DNA from: Escherichia phage teqhal
Sequence record: MN895435.1
Length of the DNA stretch: 64,000 nucleotides
Direction: 5' to 3' (one strand)
This document shows positions 14,816 through 59,793 of this stretch, in pieces (position 1 is the stretch's first letter; each line of letters starts with the position of its first letter). The notes below the pieces were generated by a model, which worked only from the letters and a program-made list of their open reading frames with translations, ran no database searches and had not been told where the DNA came from. Made by a program: the position numbers and the translations under genes.

Positions 14816-14822
14816 GGAAAAC

Positions 14823-15220: not shown

Positions 15221-15227
15221 GGTTTAA

Positions 15228-42305: not shown

Positions 42306-42521
42306 ATGAAAATTTTTAAAGATGTAAAAGTTGGTGAAATTTTTTGTTTAGATAATGGTGATCAGTTAATTCGCATTTCACCTCTTAAGAGCACTAGCGA
42401 AAAAATGACAGTTAATGCTACTTTAGCAAACAATAGTAATGAACGTTTCTGTATTGAAAATGATACTGAAACTTATACCGTAGAAGAGTTTTGGGAATTG
42501 AGCGTCGACTGCGACGATTAA
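42306..42521 (+). CDS. hypothetical protein
   Basis: 71 aa ORF. Confidence 0.45.
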   Translation: MKIFKDVKVGEIFCLDNGDQLIRISPLKSTSEKMTVNATLANNSNERFCIENDTETYTVEEFWELSVDCDD

Positions 42522-42581
42522 TTTAATGGCCGCGTGTATTCATGCGGCCTTGGAGTAGAAAATAATTTAGAGGAAATTAAT

Positions 42582-43040
42582 ATGAAATATATGACTGTTA
42601 CTGATCTAAATGATGCAGGCGCTACTGTTATTGGTACAATCAAGGGTGGTGAATGGTTTTTAGGAACTCCGCATAAAGATATTTTATCTAAACCTGGATT
42701 TTACTTTTTAGTAAGTAAATTAGATGGTCGTCCATTTAGTAATCCATGTGTGTCTGCACGATTTTATGTAGGTAATCAGCGTTCTAAGCAAGGATTCAGT
42801 GCAGTTCTAAGTCATATTCGTCAACGTCGGTCTCAGCTTGCACGTACTATTGCAAATAACAATATGGTATACACAGTATTTTATCTGCCTGCTTCTAAGA
42901 TGAAACCTCTGACGACAGGATTTGGTAAAGGTCAGTTAGCTTTGGCGTTTACCCGTAATCATCATTCCGAGTATCAAACACTTGAAGAAATGAACCGTAT
43001 GTTGGCTGATAACTTTAAATTCGTTTTGCAGGCATATTAA
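42582..43040 (+). CDS. ndd: nucleoid disruption protein Ndd
   Basis: 152 aa from ATG 42582 with GAGG RBS (track ORF 42534..43040); [28 protein letters not shown] matches remembered T4 Ndd. Confidence 0.85.
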
Positions 43041-43120
43041 TGAGTAATTTCCACAACGAACACGTGATGCAGTTCTATCGTAATAATCTTAAAACTAAAG
43101 GCGTCTTCGGACGCCAGTGA
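43040..43120 (+). CDS. stp: Stp peptide (26 aa), modulator of host restriction/anticodon-nuclease system
   Basis: [26 protein letters not shown] matches remembered T4 Stp; ATG overlaps ndd stop; absent from ORF track. Confidence 0.7.
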
Positions 43121-43127
43121 GGAAAAT

Positions 43128-43286
43128 ATGAATATTGCAAAATTATTAGGAGTTATTTCATTTATTTGTTGGATAGTAGCATGTGTTTTAACTATCTGTA
43201 TCGATGCTAGCAGTGTGTTTTCGCAAGCTTTAGCTCAGGGTATGTGTGCATATTTAACATTTGTGTTGTTATCTACTAATGATTAA
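43128..43286 (+). CDS. ac: small membrane protein, Ac-like (acridine sensitivity)
   Basis: 52 aa hydrophobic peptide MNIAKLLGVISFICWIVACVLTICID at the T4 ac position; absent from ORF track. Confidence 0.5.
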   Translation: MNIAKLLGVISFICWIVACVLTICIDASSVFSQALAQGMCAYLTFVLLSTND

Positions 43287-43423
43287 GAAAATCTTGGGCT
43301 ATTCATTAGCCCTTGCTACTTTATTAGTAGCACTATATTATGGAGTAATGTTCGGATTGATTCAAGTCGTGCTTTTCATTTCTGATGTTATTATGGCACT
43401 ACATTCACTAGTATGGTAAATTT

Positions 43424-44752
43424 ATGCAACTGAATAATCGCGATTTAAAAAGTATCATTGATAATGAAGCATTGGCTTATGCTATGTACACGGTTGAAAA
43501 TCGTGCTATTCCAAATATGATTGATGGATTTAAGCCAGTTCAACGATTTGTTATTGCTCGAGCTCTTGATTTGGCACGAGGAAATAAAGATAAGTTTCAC
43601 AAACTTGCTTCTATTGCAGGTGGTGTAGCGGACCTTGGATATCACCATGGTGAAAACTCTGCACAAGATGCAGGGGCTTTGATGGCTAATACTTGGAATA
43701 ATAACTTTCCTTTGTTAGATGGTCAAGGAAACTTCGGTTCTCGTACTGTCCAAAAGGCAGCAGCTAGTCGTTATATTTTTGCTCGTGTAAGTAAAAATTT
43801 CTATAACGTATATAAAGATACTGAATATGCTCCAGTACATCAAGATAAAGAACACATTCCGCCTGCTTTCTATTTGCCTATTATTCCTACTGTTCTTCTT
43901 AATGGTGTTTCCGGTATTGCAACTGGTTATGCAACTTACATTCTTCCTCATAGTGTTTCTTCTGTCAAGAAAGCTGTACTGCAAGCTCTTCAAGGAAAGA
44001 AAGTAACTAAACCGAAGGTAGAATTCCCAGAATTTCGTGGTGAAGTCGTTGAGATTGATGGGCAATATGAAATTCGTGGAACATACAAGTTTACTTCACG
44101 AACTCAAATGCATATCACTGAGATTCCGTATAAGTATGATCGTGAAACTTATGTGAGTAAAATCTTAGACCCACTTGAAGATAAAGGCTTCATTACGTGG
44201 GATGATGCTTGTGGTGAGCATGGCTTTGGCTTTAAAGTTAAATTCCGTAAAGAATATTCTTTGAGCGATAATGAAGAAGAACGCCATGCAAAAATTATGA
44301 AAGACTTCGGGTTGATTGAGCGTCGTTCCCAAAATATTACCGTTATTAATGAGAAAGGAAAGCTACAAGTTTACGATAACGTAGTTGATTTAATCAAAGA
44401 CTTCGTTGAAGTTCGTAAAACTTATGTCCAAAAACGAATTGATAACAAAATCAAAGAAACTGAATCAGCATTTCGTTTAGCCTTTGCCAAGGCGCATTTC
44501 ATTAAGAAAGTAATTTCAGGTGAAATTGTTGTACAGGGTAAAACTCGTAAAGAACTGACCGAAGAACTTTCTAAAATTGAGATGTATTCTTCTTATGTTG
44601 ATAAACTAGTTGGAATGAATATTTTTCATATGACTTCTGATGAAGCAAAGAAACTTGCTGAAGAAGCTAAAGCTAAAAAAGAAGAAAACGAATATTGGAA
44701 AACTACTGATGTAGTTACAGAATACACTAAAGATTTAGAGGAAATCAAATGA
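43424..44752 (+). CDS. 52: topoisomerase II medium subunit gp52 (GyrA-like)
   Basis: 442 aa, same length as T4 gp52. Confidence 0.9.
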   Translation: MQLNNRDLKSIIDNEALAYAMYTVENRAIPNMIDGFKPVQRFVIARALDLARGNKDKFHKLASIAGGVADLGYHHGENSAQDAGALMANTWNNNFPLLDGQGNFGSRTVQKAAASRYIFARVSKNFYNVYKDTEYAPVHQDKEHIPPAFYLPIIPTVLLNGVSGIATGYATYILPHSVSSVKKAVLQALQGKKVTKPKVEFPEFRGEVVEIDGQYEIRGTYKFTSRTQMHITEIPYKYDRETYVSKILDPLEDKGFITWDDACGEHGFGFKVKFRKEYSLSDNEEERHAKIMKDFGLIERRSQNITVINEKGKLQVYDNVVDLIKDFVEVRKTYVQKRIDNKIKETESAFRLAFAKAHFIKKVISGEIVVQGKTRKELTEELSKIEMYSSYVDKLVGMNIFHMTSDEAKKLAEEAKAKKEENEYWKTTDVVTEYTKDLEEIK

Positions 44753-44898
44753 GTCCATTCATTGGTATTACAAGCGCTGCATTAGTATCTGGCGGCATTT
44801 TACTAGCGGGGGTAGGTGTTGTTCCAGCCGTAGCAGGAGGTCTTCTTGCGTTCGGCATTCAACGTGTTATCATGACAGTTATCACAGTCATGCAGTAA
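44749..44898 (+). CDS. small Gly/Ala/Val-rich membrane peptide (49 aa)
   Basis: ATGA overlap with gene 52 stop; absent from ORF track. Confidence 0.4.
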   Translation: MSPFIGITSAALVSGGILLAGVGVVPAVAGGLLAFGIQRVIMTVITVMQ

Positions 44899-44902
44899 TT
44901 TT

Positions 44903-44929
44903 AGGGAGAGCCGAGGCTCTCCCTTTTTT
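44903..44929 (+). terminator. hairpin AGGGAGAGCCGAGGCTCTCCCTTTTTT
   Basis: perfect palindrome plus T-run. Confidence 0.65.
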
Positions 44930-44954
44930 ATTTCAAAAATTTTTTCATAAAACG

Positions 44955-44986
44955 GTTTACAACCAAAGCATACTGTGGTACTATAC
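44955..44986 (+). promoter_or_regulatory. T4-type early promoter with UP region and conserved leader
   Basis: GTTTACAACCAAAGCATACTGTGGTACTATAC upstream of motA. Confidence 0.55.
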
Positions 44987-45025
44987 AACTATCAACTACT
45001 GATACAGAATTACGGAGATTAGAAA

Positions 45026-45661
45026 ATGTCTAAAGTAACTTACATCATCAAAGCTTCTAACGATGTTCTGAATGAAAAAACTGCTGCGATTTTAATTACT
45101 ATTGCTAAGAAAGATTTCATTACAGCTGCAGAAGTTCGTGAGGTGCATCCAGATTTAGGTAACGCAGTAGTTAATAGTAATATTGGGGTATTGATTAAAA
45201 AAGGCCTGGTGGAGAAATCTGGTGATGGATTAATCATTACTGGTGAAGCTCAGGATATTATTTCAAATGCAGCAACTTTATATGCACAGGAAAATGCTCC
45301 GGAACTACTGAAAAAACGAGCAACTCGTAAAGCTCGCGAGATTACTTCCGATATGGAAGAAGATAAAGACCTCATGTTAAAACTTTTAGATGAAAATGGA
45401 TTTGTTCTTAAAAAGGTTGAAACTTATCGTAGTAATTATCTTGCCATTTTAGAAAAACGCACTCACGGAATTCGTAATTTTGAAATTAACAACAATGGAA
45501 ACATGCGAATTTTTGGATACAAAATGATGGAACATCATATTCAGAAATTTACTGACATCGGAATGTCATGTAAAATCGCTAAAAACGGTAATGTGTATCT
45601 TGACATTAAACGCTCGGTAGAAAACATTGAAGCAGTAATCACTGTAGCATCTGAACTGTGA
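45026..45661 (+). CDS. motA: middle-transcription activator MotA
   Basis: 211 aa, same length as T4 MotA, preceded by an early promoter. Confidence 0.9.
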   Translation: MSKVTYIIKASNDVLNEKTAAILITIAKKDFITAAEVREVHPDLGNAVVNSNIGVLIKKGLVEKSGDGLIITGEAQDIISNAATLYAQENAPELLKKRATRKAREITSDMEEDKDLMLKLLDENGFVLKKVETYRSNYLAILEKRTHGIRNFEINNNGNMRIFGYKMMEHHIQKFTDIGMSCKIAKNGNVYLDIKRSVENIEAVITVASEL

Positions 45662-45671
45662 GGAATAAATA

Positions 45672-46001
45672 ATGAACAAGTTAGAAATTGTTAATGAACT
45701 TCGTCGTTGTGCAGAACCTACCCAAGAGGGTTGGGACATCTGGTATCATGGAGCTTATCTTGGAACTATCGTAAAGATTAAGACTGGTAAATACATGATT
45801 ATTCGTGAAAGTAAAGATGCTCCAGTAGGTATTCGTAATAATTTTATGGCAGCGATAAGTTCATTTACGGATGCAGCTTACGAAATTTACCTTGCTGATT
45901 ATAAAGAATTCCAGGAATCTCAACCAGTTATTCGTTCAATTGGTGTTAACAAAGCTCAACAGAAAACTTTGTGGCAACGTATTAAAGGATGGTTTAAATG
46001 A
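45672..46001 (+). CDS. hypothetical protein
   Basis: 109 aa ORF. Confidence 0.45.
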
Positions 46002-46459
46002 ACCCGTTTGTTAATCGTTTAAAAATGCTGAATGTTCCTTTATCTCGCGAGACTCCAGAAAGTCTTGTTCAAAAATTTAAAGCACACGGTTATAAATGCA
46101 CAGAAGAAGATATTCTGAAAGAAGTTCCTGAAATCTGTTGGCAGACTGCATATTGGGATGAAAACCAAAAGTATCAACGACGAATTGTATGTGCTGCTAA
46201 TCGGTTTAAATTAAAAGATGGACGAACTCTTATTATTCCAGGTGCTCGTCATTATTCTAAAGATATGGCAGAAGTTTTAGATGTAGTTAAACCCCAATTA
46301 GTTACTCAACAAGTTTGTGATGATGACCAAGGGTTTATTGACCAATATAGTAATTATTGGACACGTGAAGAAGCAATGATTATTGCAACTTACGCTGGAC
46401 AAGTACGTATTGAACGTGGTGGTAGTGAAAAAGAACTTTACTCTGAGGACCTTTACTAA
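45998..46459 (+). CDS. hypothetical protein
   Basis: 153 aa ORF with ATGA overlap. Confidence 0.45.
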
Positions 46460-46755
46460 TGAATATTAAAAAGTTTCAAATTGATGGAATTATGAATCAA
46501 ATCCAGGCACTAGAATATGCCAATAAAATGATGTCAACTAATTGGGGAATTTATACCAATGAGCCGGGATTTAAGTTCTGTGATATGGAATTCACCAAAA
46601 AGCTCGTAGGAAAAGATTATGTATGTCCATTTAGTTCTATAATAAATGACATGCTAAAACCTGCTTTACGCGATCTTTATATTGCGATGAACGAAGAAAT
46701 GATAAAAGAATTAAAACGTCAACTGAAGGTGATTCAATTTGGCCAGGGAAATTAA
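46459..46755 (+). CDS. hypothetical protein
   Basis: 98 aa ORF. Confidence 0.45.
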   Translation: MNIKKFQIDGIMNQIQALEYANKMMSTNWGIYTNEPGFKFCDMEFTKKLVGKDYVCPFSSIINDMLKPALRDLYIAMNEEMIKELKRQLKVIQFGQGN

Positions 46756-46957
46756 TTCAAAATCTGATTATTTTAATTCTCTCAATGATAAAGATAAAAA
46801 TCTAATACGGCATTTTATTGTTGAGATGGGATATACGGATACACACGATTTAAGAGAACATATATTTGAATGTGGTGTAGCTAAAAAGTTTTCATTCACA
46901 TGCAAATGTTTGAGAGAGGTAATTCAGCACTATGAACAATTTAGTCGCAAAACATAA
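46739..46957 (+). CDS. hypothetical protein
   Basis: 72 aa ORF. Confidence 0.4.
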   Translation: MAREINSKSDYFNSLNDKDKNLIRHFIVEMGYTDTHDLREHIFECGVAKKFSFTCKCLREVIQHYEQFSRKT

Positions 46958-47040
46958 TTTTAATAAAGCTTCTGTTCATAAGGATAAGAAGAAAGCGTTT
47001 AAAGAATCTAATCGCAAACAGAAACATAAGGGGAAGGTCT

Positions 47041-47319
47041 ATGATTATTGATTCTCAATCCGTGGTTCAATACACAATCAAAATTGATATTCTAGAAAAG
47101 CTATATAAGTTTCTACCAAACCTATACCATTCAATTGTTAATGAATTAGTTGAAGAACTACATCTTGAGAATAATGATTTCTTGATTGGAACTTATAAAG
47201 ACCTCTCAAAAGCAGGATATTTCTACGTAATTCCAGCTCCAGGAAAAAGTATTGATGATGTATTAAAAACTATAATGATTTACGTCCATGATTATGAAAT
47301 TGAAGATTATTTCGAATGA
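47041..47319 (+). CDS. arn: Arn-like anti-restriction protein (McrBC inhibitor)
   Basis: 92 aa acidic protein in the T4 arn position beside asiA, T4 Arn length. Confidence 0.6.
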   Translation: MIIDSQSVVQYTIKIDILEKLYKFLPNLYHSIVNELVEELHLENNDFLIGTYKDLSKAGYFYVIPAPGKSIDDVLKTIMIYVHDYEIEDYFE

Positions 47320-47468
47320 GTCATAATCTTGAAAAAGTAATCGAGCATAATGTAGCTCAGGAACGTAAGTCGTTCAAGGAATTCGTAGAAAAAATTTTTG
47401 AAGAAAATAACACAGACCAGTTTACAAATCAAGCGTCTGATGATATTATAACAAAGTCAACTAATTGA
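47316..47468 (+). CDS. hypothetical protein (50 aa)
   Basis: ATGA overlap with arn; contains the asiA promoter; absent from ORF track. Confidence 0.25.
   Translation: MSHNLEKVIEHNVAQERKSFKEFVEKIFEENNTDQFTNQASDDIITKSTN
47420..47451 (+). promoter_or_regulatory. T4-type early promoter for asiA
   Basis: GTTTACAAATCAAGCGTCTGATGATATTATAA. Confidence 0.5.
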
Positions 47469-47480
47469 GTGGTATAGTTA

Positions 47481-47753
47481 ATGAATAAAAACATTGATAC
47501 AGTTCGTGAAATTATTACTGTTGCGTCTATTTTGATTAAATTTTCCAGAGAAGATATTGTTGAGAATCGTGCTAATTTTATTGCATTTCTGAATGAGATT
47601 GGAGTAACGCATGAAGGTAGAAAATTAAATCAGAATTCATTCCGTAAAATTGTTTCTGAATTAACTCAAGAAGATAAGAAAACCCTCATCGACGAATTCA
47701 ACGAGGGTTTTGAGGGTGTATATCGATATCTAGAGATGTATACGAACAAATAA
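47481..47753 (+). CDS. asiA: anti-sigma-70 factor AsiA
   Basis: 90 aa, MNKNIDTVREIITVASILIKFSREDIVENRANFIAFLNEIG matches remembered T4 AsiA. Confidence 0.9.
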   Translation: MNKNIDTVREIITVASILIKFSREDIVENRANFIAFLNEIGVTHEGRKLNQNSFRKIVSELTQEDKKTLIDEFNEGFEGVYRYLEMYTNK

Positions 47754-48410
47754 TTATTTAGCCCTTCCTAATATTCTGGCCGCCTGAGCGCATATTGATT
47801 CAAGGCGGTCATTACTTATATGATCATTTCTATACCAGTACATGGTTATCGTTCCAGCATAGATATTATCCAAATTAAAATATGGACAACTGTACATGTA
47901 GTTTATTTCGGGAGTAGGCTTTTTAGTTGGTAAAAAAGCAAATTTTGAGTCAGAATAATAATGACGTCCATTTAAATGAACTATATATTCATCCATAGTT
48001 TTATCAACAGGATATCCTCCAAGTGATTTTTCAGTTATTGTTGAAGGTAATCTTCCTTCGTATGCTATAATATCAACAAAATAGTTTAAGTTTTTAGGGC
48101 GGAAAGAATACACCGCACTAAAGTCTGCCTCAGATGATATATGAACTATCTGGAGTTGTTCCAGGGCGACAGATTCAAAGCGTGCATTTCTTTCCTTTTC
48201 AATAATTTCACTGTATGTTTCATACTTTGATTGCTTATAGTACTCAAAGAAACTATCTCCCCTATACCAAACAATCGCCATCATAAATAAAAGAATTACG
48301 ACAGCTACCCGGGAAGCAAGAACCTTCCCAGTAGCGTTATCTTTGAACAAGCGATCTAGAACACCAAATAGAATATCAGAGGGCGAAAATGATATTCTAG
48401 GTGCTGCCAT
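47754..48410 (-). CDS. t: holin T
   Basis: 218 aa, one N-terminal TM segment and large periplasmic domain, T4 holin length. Confidence 0.9.
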   Translation of the reverse strand: MAAPRISFSPSDILFGVLDRLFKDNATGKVLASRVAVVILLFMMAIVWYRGDSFFEYYKQSKYETYSEIIEKERNARFESVALEQLQIVHISSEADFSAVYSFRPKNLNYFVDIIAYEGRLPSTITEKSLGGYPVDKTMDEYIVHLNGRHYYSDSKFAFLPTKKPTPEINYMYSCPYFNLDNIYAGTITMYWYRNDHISNDRLESICAQAARILGRAK

Positions 48411-48442
48411 AGACCCTCCTTTTAAGGATATTTATTCAAAAA

Positions 48443-49228
48443 TTATACTCTTGAACCATATATTGTACCAACCTTAGTCCAAGTTGGAGCATTACCAGTA
48501 ACAGCTTTACCGGCCGCGCCGCCGTTATATTCTGATCCTTGCCCACGAATATTACATTTACCACCTGCGGCACCAGCATCACCGCCATTCCCGCCATTAT
48601 AGATACCATTGACAGACCCTTTACCAGGTGCAGAAATAGTACCAGCAGTAGCGCCCTGTTCCATATTAGCAGACCCGCCAGCAGCACCAAATGGACGACC
48701 GCCGCCACCGCCAAAAGTCAATTTCATTTGTGAAAAAGGAGAATAATATCCGCCTCCACCGCCGCCACCGCCTCCTGCGATAACACCATTGTTGTTAATA
48801 CGCAATCTAGTTCCAATTCCATTATTTATTGCAGTTCCTCCTGCTCCACCGGCAGAGTTATTTCCGCCATTCCCGCCACGGCCCCAAACATGCACTCCTG
48901 AATTGATATTAAGTGTCACGTATGCATTAGTTAATGAGCTAGGAAAATCTAAGCATGGAACACCAGTAGATTGAGAAACAATATTTCCTGTAATAGTAAT
49001 AACAACAGGAGTACTGCCTTGGGCTTTTATCCAGTTTATTAATGTATCTTTATTATAAGAATTACTAGCACCAATGCTATAATATACTTCTTTAGATTGT
49101 CCGGCCATTGAGCTCATCCAACCGGGAACTGAAACACGGACTGCTCTCATTGCAGCATCCATCCAACGTTGTCCAGTTTCATTCACGGCAGATTCACCAA
49201 TCCAGCCAGGAACACCTACAATTGCCAT
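48443..49228 (-). CDS. 38: long tail fibre adhesin gp38 (T2 type, glycine-rich)
   Basis: 261 aa with repeated poly-Gly tracts (GGGGGGGGGYY, FGGGGGRPFGAAGG) between variable segments. Confidence 0.8.
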   Translation of the reverse strand: MAIVGVPGWIGESAVNETGQRWMDAAMRAVRVSVPGWMSSMAGQSKEVYYSIGASNSYNKDTLINWIKAQGSTPVVITITGNIVSQSTGVPCLDFPSSLTNAYVTLNINSGVHVWGRGGNGGNNSAGGAGGTAINNGIGTRLRINNNGVIAGGGGGGGGGYYSPFSQMKLTFGGGGGRPFGAAGGSANMEQGATAGTISAPGKGSVNGIYNGGNGGDAGAAGGKCNIRGQGSEYNGGAAGKAVTGNAPTWTKVGTIYGSRV

Positions 49229-49239
49229 TAAAAATCCTT

Positions 49240-49257
49240 AGAGGGCCGAAGCCCTCT
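49240..49257. other. palindromic hairpin AGAGGGCCGAAGCCCTCT between genes 37 and 38
   Basis: perfect inverted repeat in the 30 nt intergenic gap. Confidence 0.5.
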
Positions 49258-49258
49258 T

Positions 49259-52200
49259 TTACATAAGTTTAGATTCAAGTTCTTTTACACGAGAAGAAAG
49301 CGTTTTCACAGCTTCAACCAGAAGAGCAATCTGGGCTTGAGAAGAAACAGTGAGTATTTTATTACCCTTGCTGTCTTCTGTTTCACGGACGGCTTCTGGT
49401 AAAACGTCTTGTAACGTTTGAGCTACAATACCCGCTTCAGTTTCAATTGCCTCTCCACCGATGTATTCAGCTTTATCATAAATGACACCATTGAGTTTTT
49501 CAACTTTATCAAGTGCATTTTCGATAGGTTTGAAATTAGATTTTAAGCGAATATCAGAACGAATATAAACGTTTGGAGCATTTATATTTTTATATGAGTA
49601 CAAATCACCGTTTTGGAAACGGAATACTTGTACGCTGTTCGCATATATGTCTAATAATCCATCGCCATTTTGCTTAATACCAGTATCGCTATCACCAAAT
49701 GCTATACTATTTCCACCAAGTGCGTTATTGATATTAATACCAAATGAATTCATTTGGTTAACACCAGCTACAGTAGCATTATTTACTACAAAGCGGTTAG
49801 CTCCACCTGGAGCTTTTTCAAAGTAAGCAATATAGTTAGTTTCATCGGCAATTTCAATACGGTTACCACGAGAAGCATCGCCAGCATGAAATATTCTCAT
49901 ATTTCTTGGGTTAGCACCAGACTTATCAAAGTTAATAGAACCATTATCTTTGACATTTATGCTATTATAGAATAAAGCAGCACTGCGAACAGCTATGCCG
50001 TTATTCATTAATACTTCACCGGTTGTTAAGTTAATTGCGAAAGGACGCTTACTATTCCAATCACCGTTAACAGTTGCTTCGCCATCGGTGGCATTTTTAT
50101 CTGTAAACAGAATATAAAAACTACTGCCATCATTTCGTAGCATTGTAGCAACAGAACCAGTTTTATCGCTGTTGCTTCTAATACGAATACCAGTTTGGTT
50201 ATTAATAGCTATTTCAGAATCGGCTTCATAACGCTTAACTTTGCCGCGATCAACCAAGTTATTAAGAACATTAGCAACTTGCCCATCAACTGCTGTATCT
50301 GGAAGAGCATCCACAGGTGATTGGGTAGATGAGTTAATACCAATAACGCTAACAGTAGCATTTTCGGTACATGACCATTCACAAGTTAATTGATTGCAAT
50401 ATGTTCCGGCATAAACATAAATGTCATATGTATCTCCAGAGACGTTATTAACTGCAATATTTTTAAATGCAGCTGCAATTGTTCTTGTGTATAATACAGC
50501 ATTTAAGTCAGCAGGTCTTTCATTACTAGTACGTAAAACAATTTCAGCAATATTGCATTGTGTGAATAATCCACTATTAAATCCAGAACCACCGGCTATT
50601 TTAAAGAAGACCGTAGAAGTGGATTGTGGCATTGTTACTGTTGCAAACTTATACCATCCAGCAGTTGCTCCATAAGTAATAAATCCAGAATTAACTTTAC
50701 GATTTAGCGTGGTGTTTAAGTTAGCAAAGTTTCCTGAACCGCTAGTAATATTACCATCAGTTCCTAGTTGGGCATTTCCGACTTTAAGAGGTTTACTGAT
50801 TGACACGAAATTATCGCTTATAACAAGACCGTGTCCATAAGATTGACTATAAAGCGATAAATCACTTCCAGCGCCACCAAGACCAACATACCACGATCTA
50901 GTTCCAGCTTTAGAACCCTGCAAATAATTAGCAGAAGAAGATGAAGGAGAATCTAGAGTAAGCGCTGCATTACGTTCATTAATAGTTACTGGACATATCA
51001 TTTTAATAGTTTTAAGACTATTACTTACTTGTAATAATCCTGTACCAGATCCAGAATCTCCTAAATGAACATCATGCGACATTTTAACTGTGCCGGTGTT
51101 CAGTTCTATTATCAATGGTCTAAGATTACTTATACCGCCAGATTCTCCAGCATCTTTAGGAGTCGGGATAATATAAAGATTTCTTTCTGAGCGACGGAAA
51201 ATAGCACCATATTCGGCATTCCAAATTCTTAATGCATCAGCAGTTCCGCCGATTTTAACTTGTCCAGTAATAGAAGAACCACCTTGGACAAACAAACCAT
51301 TAGACATGGTAACATTACCGACTAAAGTGCTTAATCCATTAACTTTAAAACTTCCGTCAGTAATAATACTTCCTCTAGCATTAACAGCTCCAGCAAACTG
51401 GGTTACAACAGGACCAGTAGTTTCTGAGCCGCTTGGGGCTACACGCTGGGAATAAAAATAATAACCTTGTCCGTCAGCTACTTCAAAAACTGTTTCACGA
51501 TTACGATCGCCAGATGCGTTAAATGAATTACCCCACGCTTTAACAGTTACATAGCTTTTATTCTGACCAGCACGAGTACCGCCTTCCCACAAAATTTGCT
51601 TAGTGCCATCAATTGTAGTAGTTGGAGCGAATGTTAGCCCAGCAGTAGAATTATTAGCTGCTAAATATATGCCGTTATATATTGAAAGCTGCTTAACAGA
51701 TGTAATACCGCCATCAGCATAAAACATTACATTATTAGAGCCAGTTACCAATTTCAAAATACCTGGGTTAACTTCCATGCCTTCTTGAGTATTAATATTA
51801 GTTTTTCCTTTACCACGGAAATAGTGGTTCATTTTACCGCCAGAGTTATATCCAATGTGGGTTTGACCATCTCCAGCAGAGTTTTCATCAGCCTGTGTTT
51901 GAACCGATAAAAAAGCAGCGTTCGTTCCAGGCATAATCCATGTTCCGCCTTGGTCTTCTGAACGTCCAAATAATGCTTTACGAGTACTACGGAAACTGTC
52001 AGGAGTAATAGACGCGATAGAAAGACCATTAGCAACTAAATCATATACACCAGATCTTTTATATGATACACCAGTTGCGGCATCTCCAATGACTATATAG
52101 CATTCACCCATTGCTCCAGTGGAGCCGTAATTATTAATGTTTTCATCTGTTGTAATTGTACCAATTGCGAGTGAGCGTCGCAACACTAAAGACCCATCAT

Positions 52201-53041
52201 TGCGAAGGCCCATTTGTTTATTAACGGCTGTATTACCGGTCCACCAAGACAGTTCATCACTTTTTCCGGTTTGTGCAGAAGCTAATTCATGATAAATCGT
52301 ACCACCAGATTTTGCACGGAATTTACGAAGGTAATTAATTCCGTTTGTTTCACCAGTTCCAGGATAAACATATTGAACTAATGACTGCGAATCGTATTGT
52401 CCAAACGCTTTCGTATCAAATGAAATATTTTTAGTTACAACAGATGGACCAATCAAAGAACCTGTTCTTGTTTCAATATTACTCTGAGCGACTAAATACC
52501 CACCAGATACTAATAAATTACCAGAATCAACTTGAAAATTACCTGAGCGCGCAAATGTCCAATATTTAGATTGACCAGTTTCATCAATATAATGAATCTT
52601 CAACGAACCTTCAGAAACTAAAGTACCTAATGAAAAAGTTCCATCTTTAAAGCGCTGTTTAATTATAGGATTATATTCAGATGTGGAAGTAGCTGAGCTT
52701 AAATCTACAAAAATTGGAGCCTTTGCAGTGTGTTGACCGGACCAAGCCCCACTTCCAGTAGTACGATAATTAAACTCAATATATCCACCACTTGCTATAA
52801 TCTGCGGGCCAATTAAATTAAATTTTCCAGTCTGTGTATAATCACCAGTTTGAGTGATATTACCACTGATATTACCGCCAGCGGTAATGCTTAAGTCAAT
52901 GATATTTCCTGAATCGTCTTTAGTAAAAATTGTTCTATCTTTTAAGTTTATAGCCAATTCACCTTCGGCTAATACTGAAGCAGCAGGACGTTGACCTGCA
53001 GTTTTGCTTCTTTTAAATTGTATTTGTTTTAAAGTAGCCAT
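49259..53041 (-). CDS. 37: long tail fibre distal subunit gp37
   Basis: 1260 aa; Gly/Ser/Thr/Asn-rich fibre sequence; C-terminus SDIRLKSNFKPIENALDKVEKLNGVIYD resembles an intramolecular chaperone (S74-like) module. Confidence 0.85.
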   Translation of the reverse strand: MATLKQIQFKRSKTAGQRPAASVLAEGELAINLKDRTIFTKDDSGNIIDLSITAGGNISGNITQTGDYTQTGKFNLIGPQIIASGGYIEFNYRTTGSGAWSGQHTAKAPIFVDLSSATSTSEYNPIIKQRFKDGTFSLGTLVSEGSLKIHYIDETGQSKYWTFARSGNFQVDSGNLLVSGGYLVAQSNIETRTGSLIGPSVVTKNISFDTKAFGQYDSQSLVQYVYPGTGETNGINYLRKFRAKSGGTIYHELASAQTGKSDELSWWTGNTAVNKQMGLRNDGSLVLRRSLAIGTITTDENINNYGSTGAMGECYIVIGDAATGVSYKRSGVYDLVANGLSIASITPDSFRSTRKALFGRSEDQGGTWIMPGTNAAFLSVQTQADENSAGDGQTHIGYNSGGKMNHYFRGKGKTNINTQEGMEVNPGILKLVTGSNNVMFYADGGITSVKQLSIYNGIYLAANNSTAGLTFAPTTTIDGTKQILWEGGTRAGQNKSYVTVKAWGNSFNASGDRNRETVFEVADGQGYYFYSQRVAPSGSETTGPVVTQFAGAVNARGSIITDGSFKVNGLSTLVGNVTMSNGLFVQGGSSITGQVKIGGTADALRIWNAEYGAIFRRSERNLYIIPTPKDAGESGGISNLRPLIIELNTGTVKMSHDVHLGDSGSGTGLLQVSNSLKTIKMICPVTINERNAALTLDSPSSSSANYLQGSKAGTRSWYVGLGGAGSDLSLYSQSYGHGLVISDNFVSISKPLKVGNAQLGTDGNITSGSGNFANLNTTLNRKVNSGFITYGATAGWYKFATVTMPQSTSTVFFKIAGGSGFNSGLFTQCNIAEIVLRTSNERPADLNAVLYTRTIAAAFKNIAVNNVSGDTYDIYVYAGTYCNQLTCEWSCTENATVSVIGINSSTQSPVDALPDTAVDGQVANVLNNLVDRGKVKRYEADSEIAINNQTGIRIRSNSDKTGSVATMLRNDGSSFYILFTDKNATDGEATVNGDWNSKRPFAINLTTGEVLMNNGIAVRSAALFYNSINVKDNGSINFDKSGANPRNMRIFHAGDASRGNRIEIADETNYIAYFEKAPGGANRFVVNNATVAGVNQMNSFGININNALGGNSIAFGDSDTGIKQNGDGLLDIYANSVQVFRFQNGDLYSYKNINAPNVYIRSDIRLKSNFKPIENALDKVEKLNGVIYDKAEYIGGEAIETEAGIVAQTLQDVLPEAVRETEDSKGNKILTVSSQAQIALLVEAVKTLSSRVKELESKLM

Positions 53042-53049
53042 AAGTCCTC

Positions 53050-53715
53050 TTAATAATAGCCGAAATCTTGAACAGAATCCTTAATTACGATTTGATCAAA
53101 TCGCGGAACGTGAGAAGGTTGAGACGCAGGATTCTGTGAGAAAAAGTTTGGCGCGGTTAAATTACCTATCATAGTGTCGCCAGAACGCAACACTCTAGAG
53201 TTCGCATTTGCTGTAACAGTATTTATTGCTCCATCAACATAGTCCTTTCTAGTAAGGTCATTCGCTGCTATAGGAGCAGCTGCATCACTTCTTACTTGAC
53301 CTGCCGCAGACACAACACCTTTTGTGCTAATATCACCATTACGTGCATTAATTACAACAGTTCGGGCTGCTGAACCCTGCGATGATTTAAAACCAATACC
53401 ATTCCACGAAACAATATCAATATTTGCTACAGCAAAAGTAGCATTATCACCGTTACCTGGATAAATACCGCATGGGTTTGTGTTGTTTACAGCATACGGG
53501 ACTTGGACGCCGCCGTTAAATGTTACCTTTGATGCATAAGTACCACCATTAGCTTTAGAAACGAAATCGTTATCTGCAGCTTGTGGTTTGTTATATTCTG
53601 AATATATTTTAAATGATTTATAGAGTACATCGTCACCGGCCGGATTCAATGGAAAATTTCCTTGATGCCAAATGACAGAGCCTCCAGCTGTTGAACCTAC
53701 TTTTAAATCAGCCAT
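53050..53715 (-). CDS. 36: long tail fibre subunit gp36
   Basis: 221 aa, same length and position as T4 gp36. Confidence 0.8.
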   Translation of the reverse strand: MADLKVGSTAGGSVIWHQGNFPLNPAGDDVLYKSFKIYSEYNKPQAADNDFVSKANGGTYASKVTFNGGVQVPYAVNNTNPCGIYPGNGDNATFAVANIDIVSWNGIGFKSSQGSAARTVVINARNGDISTKGVVSAAGQVRSDAAAPIAANDLTRKDYVDGAINTVTANANSRVLRSGDTMIGNLTAPNFFSQNPASQPSHVPRFDQIVIKDSVQDFGYY

Positions 53716-53738
53716 TGTATGCCCCTTTATTTTAATAG

Positions 53739-53746
53739 TATTTATA
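53739..53746 (-). promoter_or_regulatory. late promoter TATAAATA (minus strand) upstream of gene 36
   Basis: plus-strand TATTTATA about 24 nt upstream of gp36 start. Confidence 0.55.
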
Positions 53747-53777
53747 AAGAAAAAGGGAACCCGAAGGCTCCCTCAAT

Positions 53778-54893
53778 TTATACTTCTCTAAATTCTTGCC
53801 CAAACACTTTACCAGTTTTAGACGATGCTTGTGTAGGAAGTACCATTATATCCGGAGGTGAAGCAGATTCACAGATATAATTAACACGAATGCCGTTGAC
53901 GCCAAATTCAGCGGGTTTTGAAATTCCGCCATTTCTTGATACTTCAGAAAAGCTTAAATTTCGCATACCGCCTTGTCCCGCTTGAGCAGTTCTTTGTGCA
54001 TATATCGTAAATCCAACTGCATTTTCTGGAACAACTACATAATCTTCCTTTAATTCCCAAGACCCAGCTTGTCCAGTAAACTCAGCTTGTGTCGAGGAAA
54101 TATATCCGTTAGATGCATTATAAAAACGGATAGATATATTTGTTGTTCCAAGAGCAAGTAAATCGGCATCAGCATATAACTGGGCTTTAAGATAAAGAAC
54201 GTCACCAGGAATTAAATTATAATCAGAGAGTTTACTTATAGCAGCTGAAGTTGGTAGACGCGCAATTTCGTTATTAGTTCCACCAACCGCTGACATGAAT
54301 TGCTCAACACTTTCATACGTTCTTCTTGGAAACCCGGTAGCTCCGACATCTTCTAAACTGTCAAATACAACATCTAAAATAGTTTGATAATCATCTGTGC
54401 TTTTTCTATTACTTAATTTAACATGCTCTAATGCGATAGCTCTTTTAGAAGAAGTGTAAAAAGCAGCATATGATACATCAAATCTCGACAATATAGAGTC
54501 AGATGGAAAAGCAGACGTTCCGGCGGTTCTTAACCAAGATACTACTTCAGGAGGAAAATTAACCTTTCCGTTAGTTAATATAGCAACAATTCGATTATTC
54601 GTCAAAGAATTCATGAAATTAACAAAAGCAGCTGATGTAGTATCATTTGAAGTCGAAAAAGCATATGACTTACTATCAACTAATGCTCCTGTAGAAGGGT
54701 CAAAAACTCTTAAATGAAGGCCTGCGCTAAATGTTTGACTTCCGACAGGATTATCCTGAAATTTAACGTATGGTCCTGCTGTAGAAAGCGGGCAAGAACC
54801 CGCTATGCTTATTTTATATCTTACTGAATTGCTTTCCGATAAAAATGGCGTTTGGACATATCCTTGTCCAAACTCTGCCATAAATTTTTCCAT
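53778..54893 (-). CDS. 35: long tail fibre hinge protein gp35
   Basis: 371 aa, MEKFMAEFGQGYVQTPFLSES matches remembered T4 gp35. Confidence 0.85.
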   Translation of the reverse strand: MEKFMAEFGQGYVQTPFLSESNSVRYKISIAGSCPLSTAGPYVKFQDNPVGSQTFSAGLHLRVFDPSTGALVDSKSYAFSTSNDTTSAAFVNFMNSLTNNRIVAILTNGKVNFPPEVVSWLRTAGTSAFPSDSILSRFDVSYAAFYTSSKRAIALEHVKLSNRKSTDDYQTILDVVFDSLEDVGATGFPRRTYESVEQFMSAVGGTNNEIARLPTSAAISKLSDYNLIPGDVLYLKAQLYADADLLALGTTNISIRFYNASNGYISSTQAEFTGQAGSWELKEDYVVVPENAVGFTIYAQRTAQAGQGGMRNLSFSEVSRNGGISKPAEFGVNGIRVNYICESASPPDIMVLPTQASSKTGKVFGQEFREV

Positions 54894-54901
54894 AATACCT
54901 C

Positions 54902-57900
54902 TTATTCAACCCATTCAAATTTAACAGTTTTATTCACTGGGTCAGGAATAATGCGAACATTACCAATTCGTAAGAAATCACGAATAGTAAGATTCCCCAT
55001 TGTAGCATTATCAGATGGTAAAGCACCGATATCAGACGGCTGAGGAGGGTTACCTCCGTCAAATACCTGAACAAAACTTGACCAAGAGTTTTTGGTTTTC
55101 TGCCATGTACGTGTCCAGCGAGTGGTACGCGCTTCTGGTGTCGTTGGATAAGTAATCCAATCTTGGTAAAGCGAATCAAGTGTGTTACCAAACTGTGTCA
55201 GTGTACCAGGAGATTTAACTTCTTCGCCACGTTCTAAGTATGGAAGTCCAGTCACTTCATTAGTTTTTTCAACCATTTTAAAATAACCTGGGAACTGGTT
55301 ATAAGTGGCTGAATCGTTAATATCGATTGACCAGAATCCTACCGTATCAGATGTTGGCGCACGGGTATATAAATCAGATGTTTTAGTACCCTGAGAACGA
55401 ATTCTCGAGTTAACAGTTAAACCGCCTGAATTTATAGTAGCACCTTTGGCAATGATTAAGCTTTCACCAATTGTGACTTGACCGGATTGATTATTAATTG
55501 ATAATGGACGTAATCCATTAAATCCACCGGTCTGATCACCAGATGCAGTAAGCATAAAATATGTGCTGCCGCCATCATTCCTGATAAAGAATCCATAATC
55601 ACCGTTTATTGCTCTGAAAGCATTTGCAGACTTGCTAATGAATTCACCATTGGCTGTAACTGAACTACCAAATGTTGCTACGCCATTCGCATTCAATGAA
55701 CCGGAAGCGTTAACATTTATTGGCATCACAGTACCATTAATGCTAAACGTAATATTACCAGCTTTATTACGTTGAGAATAAAAGTGATTAGATGTTTCAT
55801 CACCAACTTCAAATACAGTAGAACGCGTTGTATCTGATCCGCCACTAAACTGATTTCCCCAAACTCTGATAGTCATCGTCTGTGCTGGGTTAGTTCCAGT
55901 TTGAGGTCCTTTCTCAAAAATCAGACGAGTTGCTGTTCCAGTATTAGAAATAGTTAATGTACTATTTGCCGAAACTGAACCACCAAACGTAGCAGTACTA
56001 GATGATACAAGAGGGGCACTCAGATTCGTTTGTTGGGTTAAGGTTAGTGAACCATTAACCGTCTGTGCAATATCCCTACGAATGAACTGAGATGAATCTA
56101 GACCATCCAATAAATTACTATCTGCAGCTTTTGCTTTTAACGGTAAATAATTTGCTAATACACGGTTTAATTCATATGGTGATATTGCATAGCTATTTTT
56201 CTCATACAGTTCTAAATCTTGGGTAGAACCGACTGTATCATTACCAACGAACGTAATTGAACCAGATGAAGTTTTAACAAAACCTCTTACCGCAGTAGTA
56301 GCTGCCCAGGTAGGTTCACTCTGCACAATCCATTTTAAATTTTTTGGAGATACAGCAGTATTTGCTGATGCTCCAGTCACAGTTTCAGACTGAGTTGCAA
56401 CTTTAATAACACCTTCCTGTGATTCGGTAGATTTAGTACTTAAAAGCTTTTTAGGAGTTATTAAAACATTATCTAATGTTCCTGTAGCAGCTTCAACTTG
56501 TGTAGCTACACGAAGTGTACCACGTTGCGTCTCATTTGCTTCAAGAATATTAAGGGTATAATGGTCCCAGAGAGTTCCTGATTCAACTAATCCAGATAGA
56601 GCAACAACAGAAGTACGATCAGTACTATTAAATCTGGTTTTAATTTTTAATGGTGTAGAGATACGAGTATCGTCGACGCCTGCGTCGAATTCAACTTGTG
56701 TAGCAATTTCAGCTATACCACTTAAACTTTCAGTTGCTCTACGGTCATTTAAAGTTTTAGGAGTGACTGCACGAGTATAATCAGTTCCTGTATTAACTTC
56801 ACTTTGCGTAGCAATTTCAATTAAACCAATTCTTCCATCAGTTGATGTCTTTTTATGTAACGTTTCTGGCGTTACAACAGCATTTGCCCATCCTTCTTGA
56901 CTCTGTCCAGCAATTACTTCACTTTCAACTGCTAAAATTACTGCACCTTGTTGCGTTGGAGTAGCTTTATACTGATCCAAAGCTTTAGGTGAAACAACTA
57001 AATTATTAGTGTTTTTATTATAAACGTTTGTACCATTTAATTCACGACTAGAAGCTGGAGTAGCGCCTGCGGTAGATACAAAAGTTACAATACCAGATAA
57101 TGATTCAGAACCTTGACGAGCTTGAAGCTTTTTAGGAGTGATGATTGTAGTATCATCGGTTCCTGCATTAGTTTCTTGCTGCGTAGCAATTTCAGCAACA
57201 CCTCTGCGAGTTTCTGTAGCAGTTCTTTCATTCAGCTTTTTAGGAGTAATGATAAGGTCATCTGCAAAAGAGAATGTGGTGTTCTGATTCACTTGAGCAG
57301 TAGTTGCTATTCTTGCAATACCTCTGCGAGTTTCTGTAGCAGTACGGTTAGCTAATGTTTCTGGAGTAATTGCTAATTCTTTTTGTGGAGAATTTTCTAA
57401 ATCGACATTAGCTTGAGCTTGTGTAGCTAAAGCAATTACGCCTAATCTTGCTCTAGTAGAATCATTCAAAGAGTCTACTCTTTCTACGGTTGGAACGTTT
57501 TGTTGTACAACCCAGTATTTTCCATCAGAATCTTCTATATAAGCAAGTTGTAAAACTGGAACATAATTAGTTTCACCGTTAAAAACTAATTCTTGAACAG
57601 TTACCCATTCAGCTTCAGGCGGATATTCTGAACGTTTTGGGAATTGCAGCAATTGAACTGAAGAAGCAATTTTATCTTCACCGGCAGCTTTGATTTTAAC
57701 TGTTTGTCCTTTTCTCATGTAATTCATGGAAATTTTAACAGTATCACCAACAGAAATATTAGTTGGAAGCTGAAGCTCAATTGTTTGAGTTGTTCCGTTA
57801 TTCGCACCAAATACCATAACTTCTTCGTTTGGACGAATATTAGAATTAGTCGTTATAATGCGTAAACGTGCTTTACTATCCCCGTCAAACAATCTCCACA

Positions 57901-58771
57901 ATTTCTCATTATCATCAAACATCAAGAAACCGTCAATCGATGTACGGCCTTCAATGGAATGAGTTCCAACTTCTTGTACTGAAGTCGTTTCATCGTATGT
58001 AGTAACAATTGTATGATAAAGTGGATTCAGTTTATCTAAATCAACGAAATTAATAATATCGCCATGATTAGCAAATCTTGGAAGTTTAACATTAATTGGT
58101 GCAGCAGAAGTAAATCTACGTACGATAAAATCATTTGATTGCGCTTGATAAGTATTCGCTGGTGTTACAACTACAGCTTCTCTACTATAATCAGCAACAT
58201 ACATTTGCCACAGACGATTACTAAAAATTAAAACTAGCTGTGACTTTGGATGAGTCATTAGTACTGAACGTACTTGTTGACCTCTGAAGTTTACAATACT
58301 TTGCACCGGAGCTACAATTAAAACTTGGTTAACTCCAGGTTTTCCTCCAATATCTTGGAGAACGATAGTATCACCATCAATTGGGGTAGATGGTAAAGTA
58401 AATGTAATATCATTACCAGCTGCGGTGTTAACCGAAATAGCTTCACCAGATTTTAATTGATATGAACCAGATGAAACCGTAATCCAGTTAGCATCGGTAC
58501 GTAATGCTCTCCAGCGTCCGCTATTAAAAGCTCCTGCCGGTTTTGGAATATCATTTATAGCAGCCCAAAAGCGGTTATCATAAATGATTACAAAATCTTT
58601 TAAATATCCACGAGTTGGATCGTATTGTTGAACTGTGTTTTCTTGAATTAAGTAATCAACGTTAACACCGTCAGTTCCTACGGTACGATCAGCTAAAGCT
58701 ACGTTGATTATTTTATCACCACCTGCGTCCAGACCGTCTTCTGCTCTGAACTTTCTTTTAATCTCGGCCAT
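54902..58771 (-). CDS. 34: long tail fibre proximal subunit gp34
   Basis: 1289 aa, same length as T4 gp34, internal ATETRRG-type repeats. Confidence 0.9.
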   Translation of the reverse strand: MAEIKRKFRAEDGLDAGGDKIINVALADRTVGTDGVNVDYLIQENTVQQYDPTRGYLKDFVIIYDNRFWAAINDIPKPAGAFNSGRWRALRTDANWITVSSGSYQLKSGEAISVNTAAGNDITFTLPSTPIDGDTIVLQDIGGKPGVNQVLIVAPVQSIVNFRGQQVRSVLMTHPKSQLVLIFSNRLWQMYVADYSREAVVVTPANTYQAQSNDFIVRRFTSAAPINVKLPRFANHGDIINFVDLDKLNPLYHTIVTTYDETTSVQEVGTHSIEGRTSIDGFLMFDDNEKLWRLFDGDSKARLRIITTNSNIRPNEEVMVFGANNGTTQTIELQLPTNISVGDTVKISMNYMRKGQTVKIKAAGEDKIASSVQLLQFPKRSEYPPEAEWVTVQELVFNGETNYVPVLQLAYIEDSDGKYWVVQQNVPTVERVDSLNDSTRARLGVIALATQAQANVDLENSPQKELAITPETLANRTATETRRGIARIATTAQVNQNTTFSFADDLIITPKKLNERTATETRRGVAEIATQQETNAGTDDTTIITPKKLQARQGSESLSGIVTFVSTAGATPASSRELNGTNVYNKNTNNLVVSPKALDQYKATPTQQGAVILAVESEVIAGQSQEGWANAVVTPETLHKKTSTDGRIGLIEIATQSEVNTGTDYTRAVTPKTLNDRRATESLSGIAEIATQVEFDAGVDDTRISTPLKIKTRFNSTDRTSVVALSGLVESGTLWDHYTLNILEANETQRGTLRVATQVEAATGTLDNVLITPKKLLSTKSTESQEGVIKVATQSETVTGASANTAVSPKNLKWIVQSEPTWAATTAVRGFVKTSSGSITFVGNDTVGSTQDLELYEKNSYAISPYELNRVLANYLPLKAKAADSNLLDGLDSSQFIRRDIAQTVNGSLTLTQQTNLSAPLVSSSTATFGGSVSANSTLTISNTGTATRLIFEKGPQTGTNPAQTMTIRVWGNQFSGGSDTTRSTVFEVGDETSNHFYSQRNKAGNITFSINGTVMPINVNASGSLNANGVATFGSSVTANGEFISKSANAFRAINGDYGFFIRNDGGSTYFMLTASGDQTGGFNGLRPLSINNQSGQVTIGESLIIAKGATINSGGLTVNSRIRSQGTKTSDLYTRAPTSDTVGFWSIDINDSATYNQFPGYFKMVEKTNEVTGLPYLERGEEVKSPGTLTQFGNTLDSLYQDWITYPTTPEARTTRWTRTWQKTKNSWSSFVQVFDGGNPPQPSDIGALPSDNATMGNLTIRDFLRIGNVRIIPDPVNKTVKFEWVE

Positions 58772-58805
58772 TCTCCCGGGCTCCTATTGTGTTTTCAATA
58801 ATAAG

Positions 58806-58813
58806 TATTTATA
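58806..58813 (-). promoter_or_regulatory. late promoter TATAAATA (minus strand) upstream of gene 34
   Basis: plus-strand TATTTATA about 35 nt upstream of gp34 start. Confidence 0.55.
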
Positions 58814-58816
58814 CTT

Positions 58817-58847
58817 GTTTACTTTAAGATTTGGATGGTATATAATA
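58817..58847 (+). promoter_or_regulatory. T4-type early promoter for rnh (divergent from the gene 34 late promoter)
   Basis: GTTTACTTTAAGATTTGGATGGTATATAATAG. Confidence 0.5.
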
Positions 58848-58875
58848 GAAATCTCACTAATTGAACGAGGTTCAT

Positions 58876-59793
58876 ATGGATTTAGAAATGATGCTGGATG
58901 AAGATTACAAAGAAGGAATTTGCTTTATTGACTTTAGTCAAATTGCGCTTTCAACTGCTTTAGTAAACTTCCCAGATAAAGAAAAAATTAATTTATCAAT
59001 GGTTCGTCATTTGATATTGAACTCAATTAAGTTTAATGTCAAAAAAGCAAAAACGCTTGGATACACTAAAATTGTACTGTGTATTGATAACGCGAAATCT
59101 GGATACTGGCGTCGTGATTTCGCTTATTATTATAAGAAAAACCGTGGAAAAGCACGAGAAGAATCGACTTGGGACTGGGAAGGTTATTTTGAATCCAGTC
59201 ATAAAGTTATAGATGAATTGAAAGCTTATATGCCATACATTGTTATGGATATTGATAAGTATGAAGCAGATGACCACATTGCTGTTCTTGTTAAAAAGTT
59301 CTCTTTAGAAGGACACAAGATTTTAATCATTTCATCGGATGGTGACTTTACACAGCTTCATAAATACCCAAATGTTAAGCAATGGTCACCGATGCATAAG
59401 AAATGGGTTAAAATTAAAAGCGGTTCTGCTGAAATTGACTGTATGACTAAAATCCTTAAAGGCGACAAAAAGGACAACGTTGCTTCAGTTAAAGTACGAT
59501 CTGACTTTTGGTTTACCAGAGTTGAAGGTGAACGAACTCCTTCAATGAAAACTTCAATCGTTGAAGCTATTGCTAATGACCGTGAGCAAGCTAAGGTGCT
59601 TCTTACAGAATCTGAATATAATCGTTATAAAGAAAATTTAGTTCTAATTGATTTTGATTATATTCCTGATAATATTGCTTCAAACATTGTGAATTACTAT
59701 AATTCATATAAATTACCACCGCGTGGCAAAATTTATTCATATTTTGTAAAAGCGGGTCTTTCTAAATTAACTAATAGCATTAATGAATTTTGA
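58876..59793 (+). CDS. rnh: RNase H (5'-3' exonuclease, FEN-like)
   Basis: 305 aa from ATG 58876 (track ORF 58861..59793); MDLEMMLDEDYKEGICFIDFSQIAL matches remembered T4 RNase H. Confidence 0.9.
   Translation: MDLEMMLDEDYKEGICFIDFSQIALSTALVNFPDKEKINLSMVRHLILNSIKFNVKKAKTLGYTKIVLCIDNAKSGYWRRDFAYYYKKNRGKAREESTWDWEGYFESSHKVIDELKAYMPYIVMDIDKYEADDHIAVLVKKFSLEGHKILIISSDGDFTQLHKYPNVKQWSPMHKKWVKIKSGSAEIDCMTKILKGDKKDNVASVKVRSDFWFTRVEGERTPSMKTSIVEAIANDREQAKVLLTESEYNRYKENLVLIDFDYIPDNIASNIVNYYNSYKLPPRGKIYSYFVKAGLSKLTNSINEF

Follow-up and report, generated by a model that had tools for sequence, protein, structure and literature searches.

The subject of this analysis is the tip of the long tail fibre encoded by Escherichia phage teqhal, within a stretch of 64,000 nucleotides of its sequence record (MN895435.1) that is referred to below as the window. 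Two consecutive open reading frames (ORFs) on the minus strand are concerned. Gene 37 occupies positions 49259–53041 and encodes a 1260-residue precursor of 134.5 kDa; gene 38 (48443–49228) sits immediately downstream of it, upstream of the holin gene t, and encodes a product of 261 residues and 25.8 kDa. A first-pass annotation, made by a model from the letters and a list of ORFs, had given both genes the same coordinates and lengths, and had proposed that gp38 is a T2-type tip adhesin and that gp37 ends in a self-cleaving intramolecular chaperone. We set out here what the two proteins contain, which receptor they are likely to recognize and how they might work together.

Gp38 matches two Pfam families, Gp38_N (PF21721) at residues 1–42 with 64.6 bits and GP38 (PF05268) at residues 47–261 with 243.2 bits, the cut-off being 25 in each case. 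In a sequence search, the crystal chain of gp38 from Salmonella phage S16 (6F45_D) matched residues 8–259 with an E value of 2.7e-49, and a second solved gp38, 9V85_A, was matched with an E value of 1e-33; the homology to the solved polyglycine-II sandwich structure is at the level of sequence. Trp9, Trp22 and Trp37 each align with a tryptophan of S16 gp38, where these residues form prongs that insert into pockets of the gp37 tip (PMC7917993).

Glycine accounts for 22.9% of its residues, and the poly-glycine tracts flanking variable segments, on which the first-pass annotation had relied, are present as a run of nine (residues 152–160), a run of five (residues 173–177) and nine more GG pairs, with variable segments in between. 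The architecture described for this class of adhesin consists of five conserved glycine-rich motifs and four hypervariable segments (PMC3157838). When the window gp38 was aligned with those of T6 and Bas35 (which use Tsx), Bas45 and RB49 (OmpA) and T2 (FadL), the glycine-rich motifs were conserved at 8/8 to 9/9 positions across this six-protein alignment, and identity in the hypervariable segments ranged from 0/12 to 11/12. On the strength of these matches we assign gp38 as a full-length T2-type tail-fibre adhesin. Because the protein is so rich in glycine, gene 38 has a G+C content of 45%, against 35% for the window. ORFs of 61–92 codons overlap the gene in other frames or on the other strand within 48436–48974 (for example, 48436–48714 on the minus strand and 48539–48733 on the plus strand); most likely they are by-products of the G+C-rich stretch of glycine codons and not genes.

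The three domains of gp38, named here after PMC12032242, do not share a single closest relative. The N-terminal attachment domain (residues 1–42; 49103–49228, minus strand), which is the Gp38_N match and carries the three tryptophans, is of the K3/T2 type, being identical to Bas45 at 42/42 positions, to T2 at 41/42 and to T6 at 28/42. The middle, beta-helix domain, placed by alignment to 6F45_D and with approximate boundaries (residues ~47–115; 48884–49090, minus strand), is of the K3/RB49/Bas45 type (64/69 identities to Bas45, 24/69 to T6). The C-terminal polyglycine specificity domain (residues 116–261; 48446–48883, minus strand), also delimited by alignment, is where the five glycine-rich motifs and the four hypervariable segments alternate. 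Taken across domains, residues 1–112 are 97% identical to Bas45 and 46% identical to T6, and the last 26 residues (236–261) are identical to Bas45 at every position.

Between these Bas45-like parts, hypervariable segments 2, 3 and 4, whose boundaries are our own assignment from the alignment, are all of the T6/Tsx type. Segment 2 (residues 161–172, YYSPFSQMKLTF; 48713–48748, minus strand) agrees with Bas35 at 11/12 positions and with T6 at 10/12, compared with 0–3/12 for the T2, RB49 and Bas45 types, and includes Gln167 and Met168 as in T6 (the T6 residues being those given in PMC3157838). Segment 3 (residues 181–211; 48596–48688, minus strand) shares 24/31 residues with both T6 and Bas35, lacks the four-residue insertion of the OmpA-type alleles and has Gly208, the T6 state. 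Segment 4 (residues 224–235, KCNIRGQGSEYN; 48524–48559, minus strand) is identical at 10/12 positions to T6 and at 11/12 to Bas35, with 7/12 for the OmpA types and 3/15 for T2.

Judged from this alignment, gp38 is a mosaic, in which the attachment half is of the K3/T2 type and the hypervariable loops are of the T6 type. Modular shuffling of adhesin parts has been described by Trojet et al. (PMC3157838). The T6-like block of DNA (nucleotides ~448–705 of gene 38) is just 76–89% identical to T6 and Bas35, from which we take the allele to be old and established and not the result of a recent exchange; a gp38 with ≥ 99% identity to it occurs in no fewer than 23 phage records. The K3/T2-type N-terminus of gp38 is paired here with a K3/T2-type gp37 tip, a combination that fits the lock-and-key pairing described in the same study (PMC3157838). 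Under the polyglycine tracts lie 9-nucleotide tandem repeats, CCGCCGCCA and ATTCCCGCC as read on the plus strand, at 48750–48772 and 48860–48878; such repeats could promote slippage, or recombination of one allele with another, inside the glycine-rich motifs.

We turn now to gp37, in which Pfam recognizes Gp34_trimer at residues 508–645, gp37_trimer at residues 694–766 and Peptidase_S74 at residues 1162–1219. The last of these (PF13884, ‘chaperone of endosialidase’) reaches 56.4 bits (cut-off 22) and covers the profile from position 1 to 58 of 58, so that the likeness to endosialidase-type chaperones seen by eye in the first-pass annotation is borne out by a profile match. Like the 243 bits of gp38, this score is the signature of a conserved family and not a chance match. 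The motif SDIRLKSNFKPIENALDKVEKLNGVIYD singled out in the earlier reading is indeed present, but it does not stand at the very C-terminal end as had been supposed; its first residue is number 1162 of the 1260, 99 residues from the C-terminus. Peptidase_S74 is also matched by the gp37 proteins of T2, T6, K3 and Bas45, Pfam gave no match to it in T4 gp37, and a tblastn search found the module in 1,695 phage records.

The serine and lysine of the SDxxxK motif are the catalytic dyad of the S74 family. In an alignment of nine diverse fibre proteins (those of the window, T6, RB32, a Cronobacter phage, a Vibrio phage, a Pseudomonas jumbo phage and three T5-like phages of Klebsiella and Salmonella), the residues corresponding to Ser1162, Asp1163 and Lys1167 of gp37 were invariant in 9/9. 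A profile built from the nine, compared with solved chaperone structures, matched S16 gp37 (6F45_A; E 7e-23), a putative tail fibre protein (8JOV; E 1.6e-11), the ICA domain of human MYRF (7DC3; E 2e-10) and the neck-appendage chaperone of phage GA-1 (3GUD; E 2e-3). The 3GUD chain starts at exactly the serine that aligns with Ser1162.

The position of the putative cut, marked here by a slash, can be read from the relatives. Direct alignment with the gp37 fragment in 6F45_A places IR/SDIRLKS of the window protein opposite VS/SDRRIKK of S16, the site at which S16 gp37 autocleaves, thereby freeing an intramolecular chaperone of 113 residues and exposing the docking surface for gp38; an equivalent cut, DVYIR/SD, has been predicted for related Yersinia phages (PMC7917993). 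The window gp37 is collinear with the gp37 proteins of K3 (76% identity) and Bas45 (68%), it shares 94.5% of its last 165 residues with T2 gp37, and both the ten residues before the site (NINAPNVYIR) and the sequence after it (SDIRLKS...) are identical in T2, K3 and Bas45. We predict autocleavage between Arg1161 and Ser1162 by a Ser1162/Lys1167 dyad. The products would be a mature gp37 of residues 1–1161 (123.7 kDa; 49559–53041, minus strand), a boundary that follows from the S16 site and the start of the 3GUD chain, and an S74 chaperone of residues 1162–1260 (99 residues, 10.8 kDa; 49262–49558, minus strand), as indicated by PF13884, the SDxxxK motif and the structure matches. By analogy with S16, the ...NINAPNVYIR end of mature gp37 is the predicted docking platform for gp38.

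Which receptor the adhesin recognizes had been left unnamed in the first-pass annotation, which assigned host range to the gp38 loops and suggested that an alignment would point to the receptor. The literature agrees on the role of the loops (PMC3157838; preprint 10.64898/2026.04.02.716166), and exchanging gp38 from hypervariable segment 2 onward suffices to switch the porin that is used (preprint 10.64898/2026.04.02.716166). The closest record to the cassette is that of Escherichia phage FriedrichMiescher (Bas39, MZ501066), at 99.9% identity with 3 mismatches over the 4599 nucleotides; the corresponding genes, bas39_0087 and bas39_0088, are annotated ‘long tail fiber distal subunit Gp37’ and ‘adhesin tip for distal long tail fiber Gp38’. 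The gp38 proteins are 100% identical and the gp37 proteins differ by one residue, R620S. Bas39 has been found experimentally to use Tsx as its primary receptor and lipopolysaccharide (deep core) as its terminal receptor (BASEL supplementary table). Shigella phage JK38 (MK962755) likewise has a gp38 that is 100% identical to that of the window, and was assigned Tsx and 3-deoxy-D-manno-octulosonic acid (Kdo) by random barcode transposon-site sequencing (RB-TnSeq; preprint 10.64898/2026.04.02.716166). Because gp38 is identical to the proteins of these two phages, and because its segments 2–4 are of the T6/Bas35 type, we name Tsx as the predicted primary receptor of the window phage; that gp38 itself would bind Tsx physically, we infer from homologues and the literature.

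The records of these two relatives contain features of their own. Between the window and Bas39 there are 118 mismatches over 16.6 kb (window positions 42440–59041), compared with the 3 in the gp37–gp38 cassette, and the fibre tip is thus markedly more conserved between the two phages than its surroundings; the cassette may have been exchanged recently, or divergence may have been uneven. The product note of Bas39 gene 34 (record positions 12460–16329) reads ‘proximal subunit Gp37’, which is an annotation slip. In JK38, gene 37 is annotated as two overlapping coding sequences (MK962755, 918–5409), its DNA being ~95% identical to gene 37 of the window; the gene may truly be split, or there may be a frameshift or an error in the sequencing.

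We are highly confident that, in this T2/T6-like Tequatrovirus, genes 37 and 38 encode the module at the distal end of the long tail fibre that recognizes the receptor, and that the module works along the following lines. The ORFs, the family memberships, the catalytic motif, the alignment of the site, the type of the loops and the identity to proteins of phages with assigned receptors are direct results from the sequence. Gp37 would be translated as a precursor of 1260 residues, whose last 99 residues, a chaperone of the S74 type, would nucleate trimerization and folding of the fibre tip. The chaperone would then remove itself by a cut at Arg1161/Ser1162 mediated by Ser1162 and Lys1167, so exposing the flat ...NVYIR tip of the gp37 trimer. 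The N-terminal domain of a single gp38 would dock onto this tip by way of Trp9, Trp22 and Trp37, and the loops of the polyglycine domain would face outward, where the T6-type segments would bind Tsx, the nucleoside channel of the outer membrane. For T6, binding sites are reported in extracellular loops 6 and 7 of Tsx (PMC12032242). The cleavage event, the geometry of docking and the physical contact with Tsx are carried over into this scheme from homologues and the literature.

Several observations weigh against this reading. The window phage and Bas39 are closely related but are separate isolates (99.3% identity over 16.6 kb, 98.4% over 25 kb), and the Tsx dependence of both Bas39 and JK38 was measured on whole phages and not on isolated gp38. 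Sequences outside the hypervariable segments can modulate specificity (PMC3157838), and gp38 resembles the adhesins of the OmpA-using phages Bas45 and RB49 in the type of its N-terminal and middle domains. Finally, a single-sequence AlphaFold2 model of gp37 residues 1101–1260 has three long helices after the cleavage site, but with a mean predicted local distance difference test score (pLDDT) of 51.8 it is of low confidence and gives no independent support for the fold.

The resemblance of two thirds of gp38 to the adhesins of OmpA phages raises the question of whether the primary receptor might be OmpA, or OmpA together with Tsx. Bas45, to which gp38 is so nearly identical over residues 1–112 (97%) and completely so over residues 236–261 (26/26), depends on OmpA, and phage PST, whose adhesin is T6-like, uses both Tsx and OmpA (PMC3157838). 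We nevertheless consider this very unlikely, and rejected OmpA, which the Bas45-like N-terminal half had suggested, on the hypervariable segments and the experimental Tsx data: segments 2–4 are of the T6 type, with residues 167, 168 and 208 as in T6 and not as in PST; the two phages with an identical gp38 are Tsx-dependent; and an exchange starting at segment 2 is enough to change the porin (preprint 10.64898/2026.04.02.716166).

The low-confidence model of the gp37 C-terminus, with a cleavage that is itself a prediction, leaves some room for an S74-like domain that is a non-cleaving relic, in which case virions would retain the C-terminus and gp38 would either bind at another place or not bind. 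Several results make this highly improbable. The serine nucleophile and the lysine are both present and invariant, the S74 score is far above the curated cut-off, and the site is homologous to that of S16, where the dock for gp38 is exposed only by cleavage. The site is moreover identical to that of T2 gp37, whose C-terminus is, going by the title of a 1986 report of Drexler, Riede and Henning, said to undergo proteolytic processing; a text search of the literature for processing of T2 gp37 found nothing.

That gp38 is instead an assembly chaperone of the T4 type, acting outside the virion to help gp37 fold while gp37 itself bears the receptor-binding tip, is extremely improbable: the labels ‘distal long tail fiber assembly catalyst’ and ‘tail assembly protein’, which records give to orthologues of gp38, speak for it but are annotation carried over from T4, according to the T4 record itself, whereas gp38 has no similarity to T4 gp38 by BLASTP (E = 19, 5/23 residues identical) and matches the adhesin family along its entire length as well as the structure of S16 gp38, and the window gp37 can be aligned to T4 gp37 over the first 832 residues only, with no match to the Collar and Phage_fiber domains that T4 gp37 contains. 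T4 gp38, for its part, matched no Pfam family. The earlier choice of a T2-type adhesin over a T4 chaperone is upheld by PF05268, PF21721 and 6F45_D.

Returning to the distal receptor-recognition module with Tsx as its target, we also considered whether it might do something beyond what is known of its relatives. The combination of domains in gp38 might confer a receptor range or a use of the loops on Tsx unlike that of T6 (OmpA, for instance, might serve as a weak second receptor, or variants of Tsx might be tolerated), or the freed 99-residue fragment might have a function after cleavage. We give this only a slim chance, and no evidence for an altered receptor range of gp38 or for a function of the chaperone fragment was seen in this analysis. 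The cassette is an ordinary tail-fibre tip, of a kind already known from near-identical phages and from the family at large.

The surroundings of the two genes are those expected of a T-even phage. The minus-strand order 34–35–36–37–38–t is the canonical T-even arrangement, and each of the neighbours was confirmed by Pfam: gene 34 at 54902–58771, gene 35, which encodes the proximal hinge connector gp35, at 53778–54893, gene 36 at 53050–53715 and the holin gene t (PF11031, 386 bits) at 47754–48410, all on the minus strand. Residues 58–127 of gp35 match the Pfam family ILEI (PF15711; interleukin-like epithelial–mesenchymal transition inducer, or FAM3-type domain) with 37.8 bits against a cut-off of 27. 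Since T4 gp35 also matches PF15711, with 35.9 bits, we regard the match as a family-wide trait of T-even gp35 and not as peculiar to the window.

Signals for expression were sought in the spacers. The 30 nucleotides between genes 37 and 38 contain a G+C-rich hairpin of 7 bp with a UUCG loop (49240–49257, minus strand), found in a scan for terminator-like sequences, followed by the gene 38 ribosome-binding site AAGGA (49235–49239, minus strand); both elements are also annotated in the homologous record of K3 (X04747). Another G+C-rich UUCG hairpin lies in the spacer between genes 35 and 36 (53753–53774, minus strand), just upstream of TATAAATA at 53739–53746. Both are probably stable RNA hairpins typical of T-even late transcripts. 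The late-promoter box TATAAATA occurs as an exact match upstream of genes 36 and 34, and no exact match was found directly upstream of gene 37 or 38, so that these two genes are probably transcribed from the promoter of gene 36. Across the whole window, neither Rfam nor a tRNA scan gave a hit, and a scan for sigma-70 promoters returned 41, compared with 40.4 expected from shuffled sequence, as expected for late genes.

The result is in essence a correct annotation: a host-range module is identified and Tsx is predicted as the primary receptor, with no new biology implied. The assignment of host range to the gp38 loops is now backed by the literature, by the T6 type of the loops and by the Tsx dependence of the two phages with an identical gp38, and the mapping of the hypervariable segments has put a name to the receptor. 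In practical terms, the misleading ‘assembly catalyst’ and ‘tail assembly protein’ labels found in many records can be corrected. For engineering, the phage would be retargeted by exchanging residues ~150–235 of gp38, and the gp37 tip and chaperone domain must stay matched to the gp38 N-terminus.

Among known systems, T4 provides a contrast. Its gp37 occupies the same gene position and is homologous to the window gp37, at 50% identity, over the first 832 residues only; beyond this, T4 gp37 has Collar and Phage_fiber domains and a receptor-binding tip of its own, and is without an S74 domain. T4 gp38 is an unrelated, non-structural chaperone. T2 and K3 gp37, by comparison, have a site identical to that of the window (NINAPNVYIR/SDIRLKS). 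T2 gp38 differs in the hypervariable segments, which are unrelated to those described here (0/12, 9/33 and 3/15), and the T2 receptor is FadL.

T6 gp38 also has 261 residues, aligns with the window gp38 without gaps, is alike in segments 2, 3 and 4 and belongs to the Tsx class; the attachment and beta-helix domains, however, are of another subtype (46% over residues 1–112), and T6 gp37 is shorter, at 994 residues, with a chaperone domain only 41% identical to that of the window protein. A structural counterpart is the S16 gp37–gp38 tip complex (6F45), in which gp38 is homologous over its full length and has the tryptophan prongs, and the tip and chaperone domain of gp37 are homologous as well, the cleavage sites being aligned. 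The sequences are otherwise divergent. The S16 chaperone has 113 residues (PMC7917993) compared with the 99 predicted here, and the tip strand leading up to the cut reads DLNVS in S16, against NVYIR in the window gp37.

More widely, the C-terminal domain of gp37 belongs to the same Pfam family as other S74 chaperones, among them those of GA-1 (3GUD), of T5-like L-shaped fibres and, according to the literature, of the K1F endosialidase. The ICA domain of MYRF (7DC3) shares both the Pfam family and the SDxxxK motif, and in the S74 fibres and spikes of phages the same SDxxxK motif is found at the same C-terminal position, after a trimeric fibre. What sets the window module apart from these other S74 proteins is the use to which cleavage would be put: in them, it is the cleaved fibre that recognizes the receptor or bears the enzyme, whereas here cleavage would make a dock for a separate adhesin.

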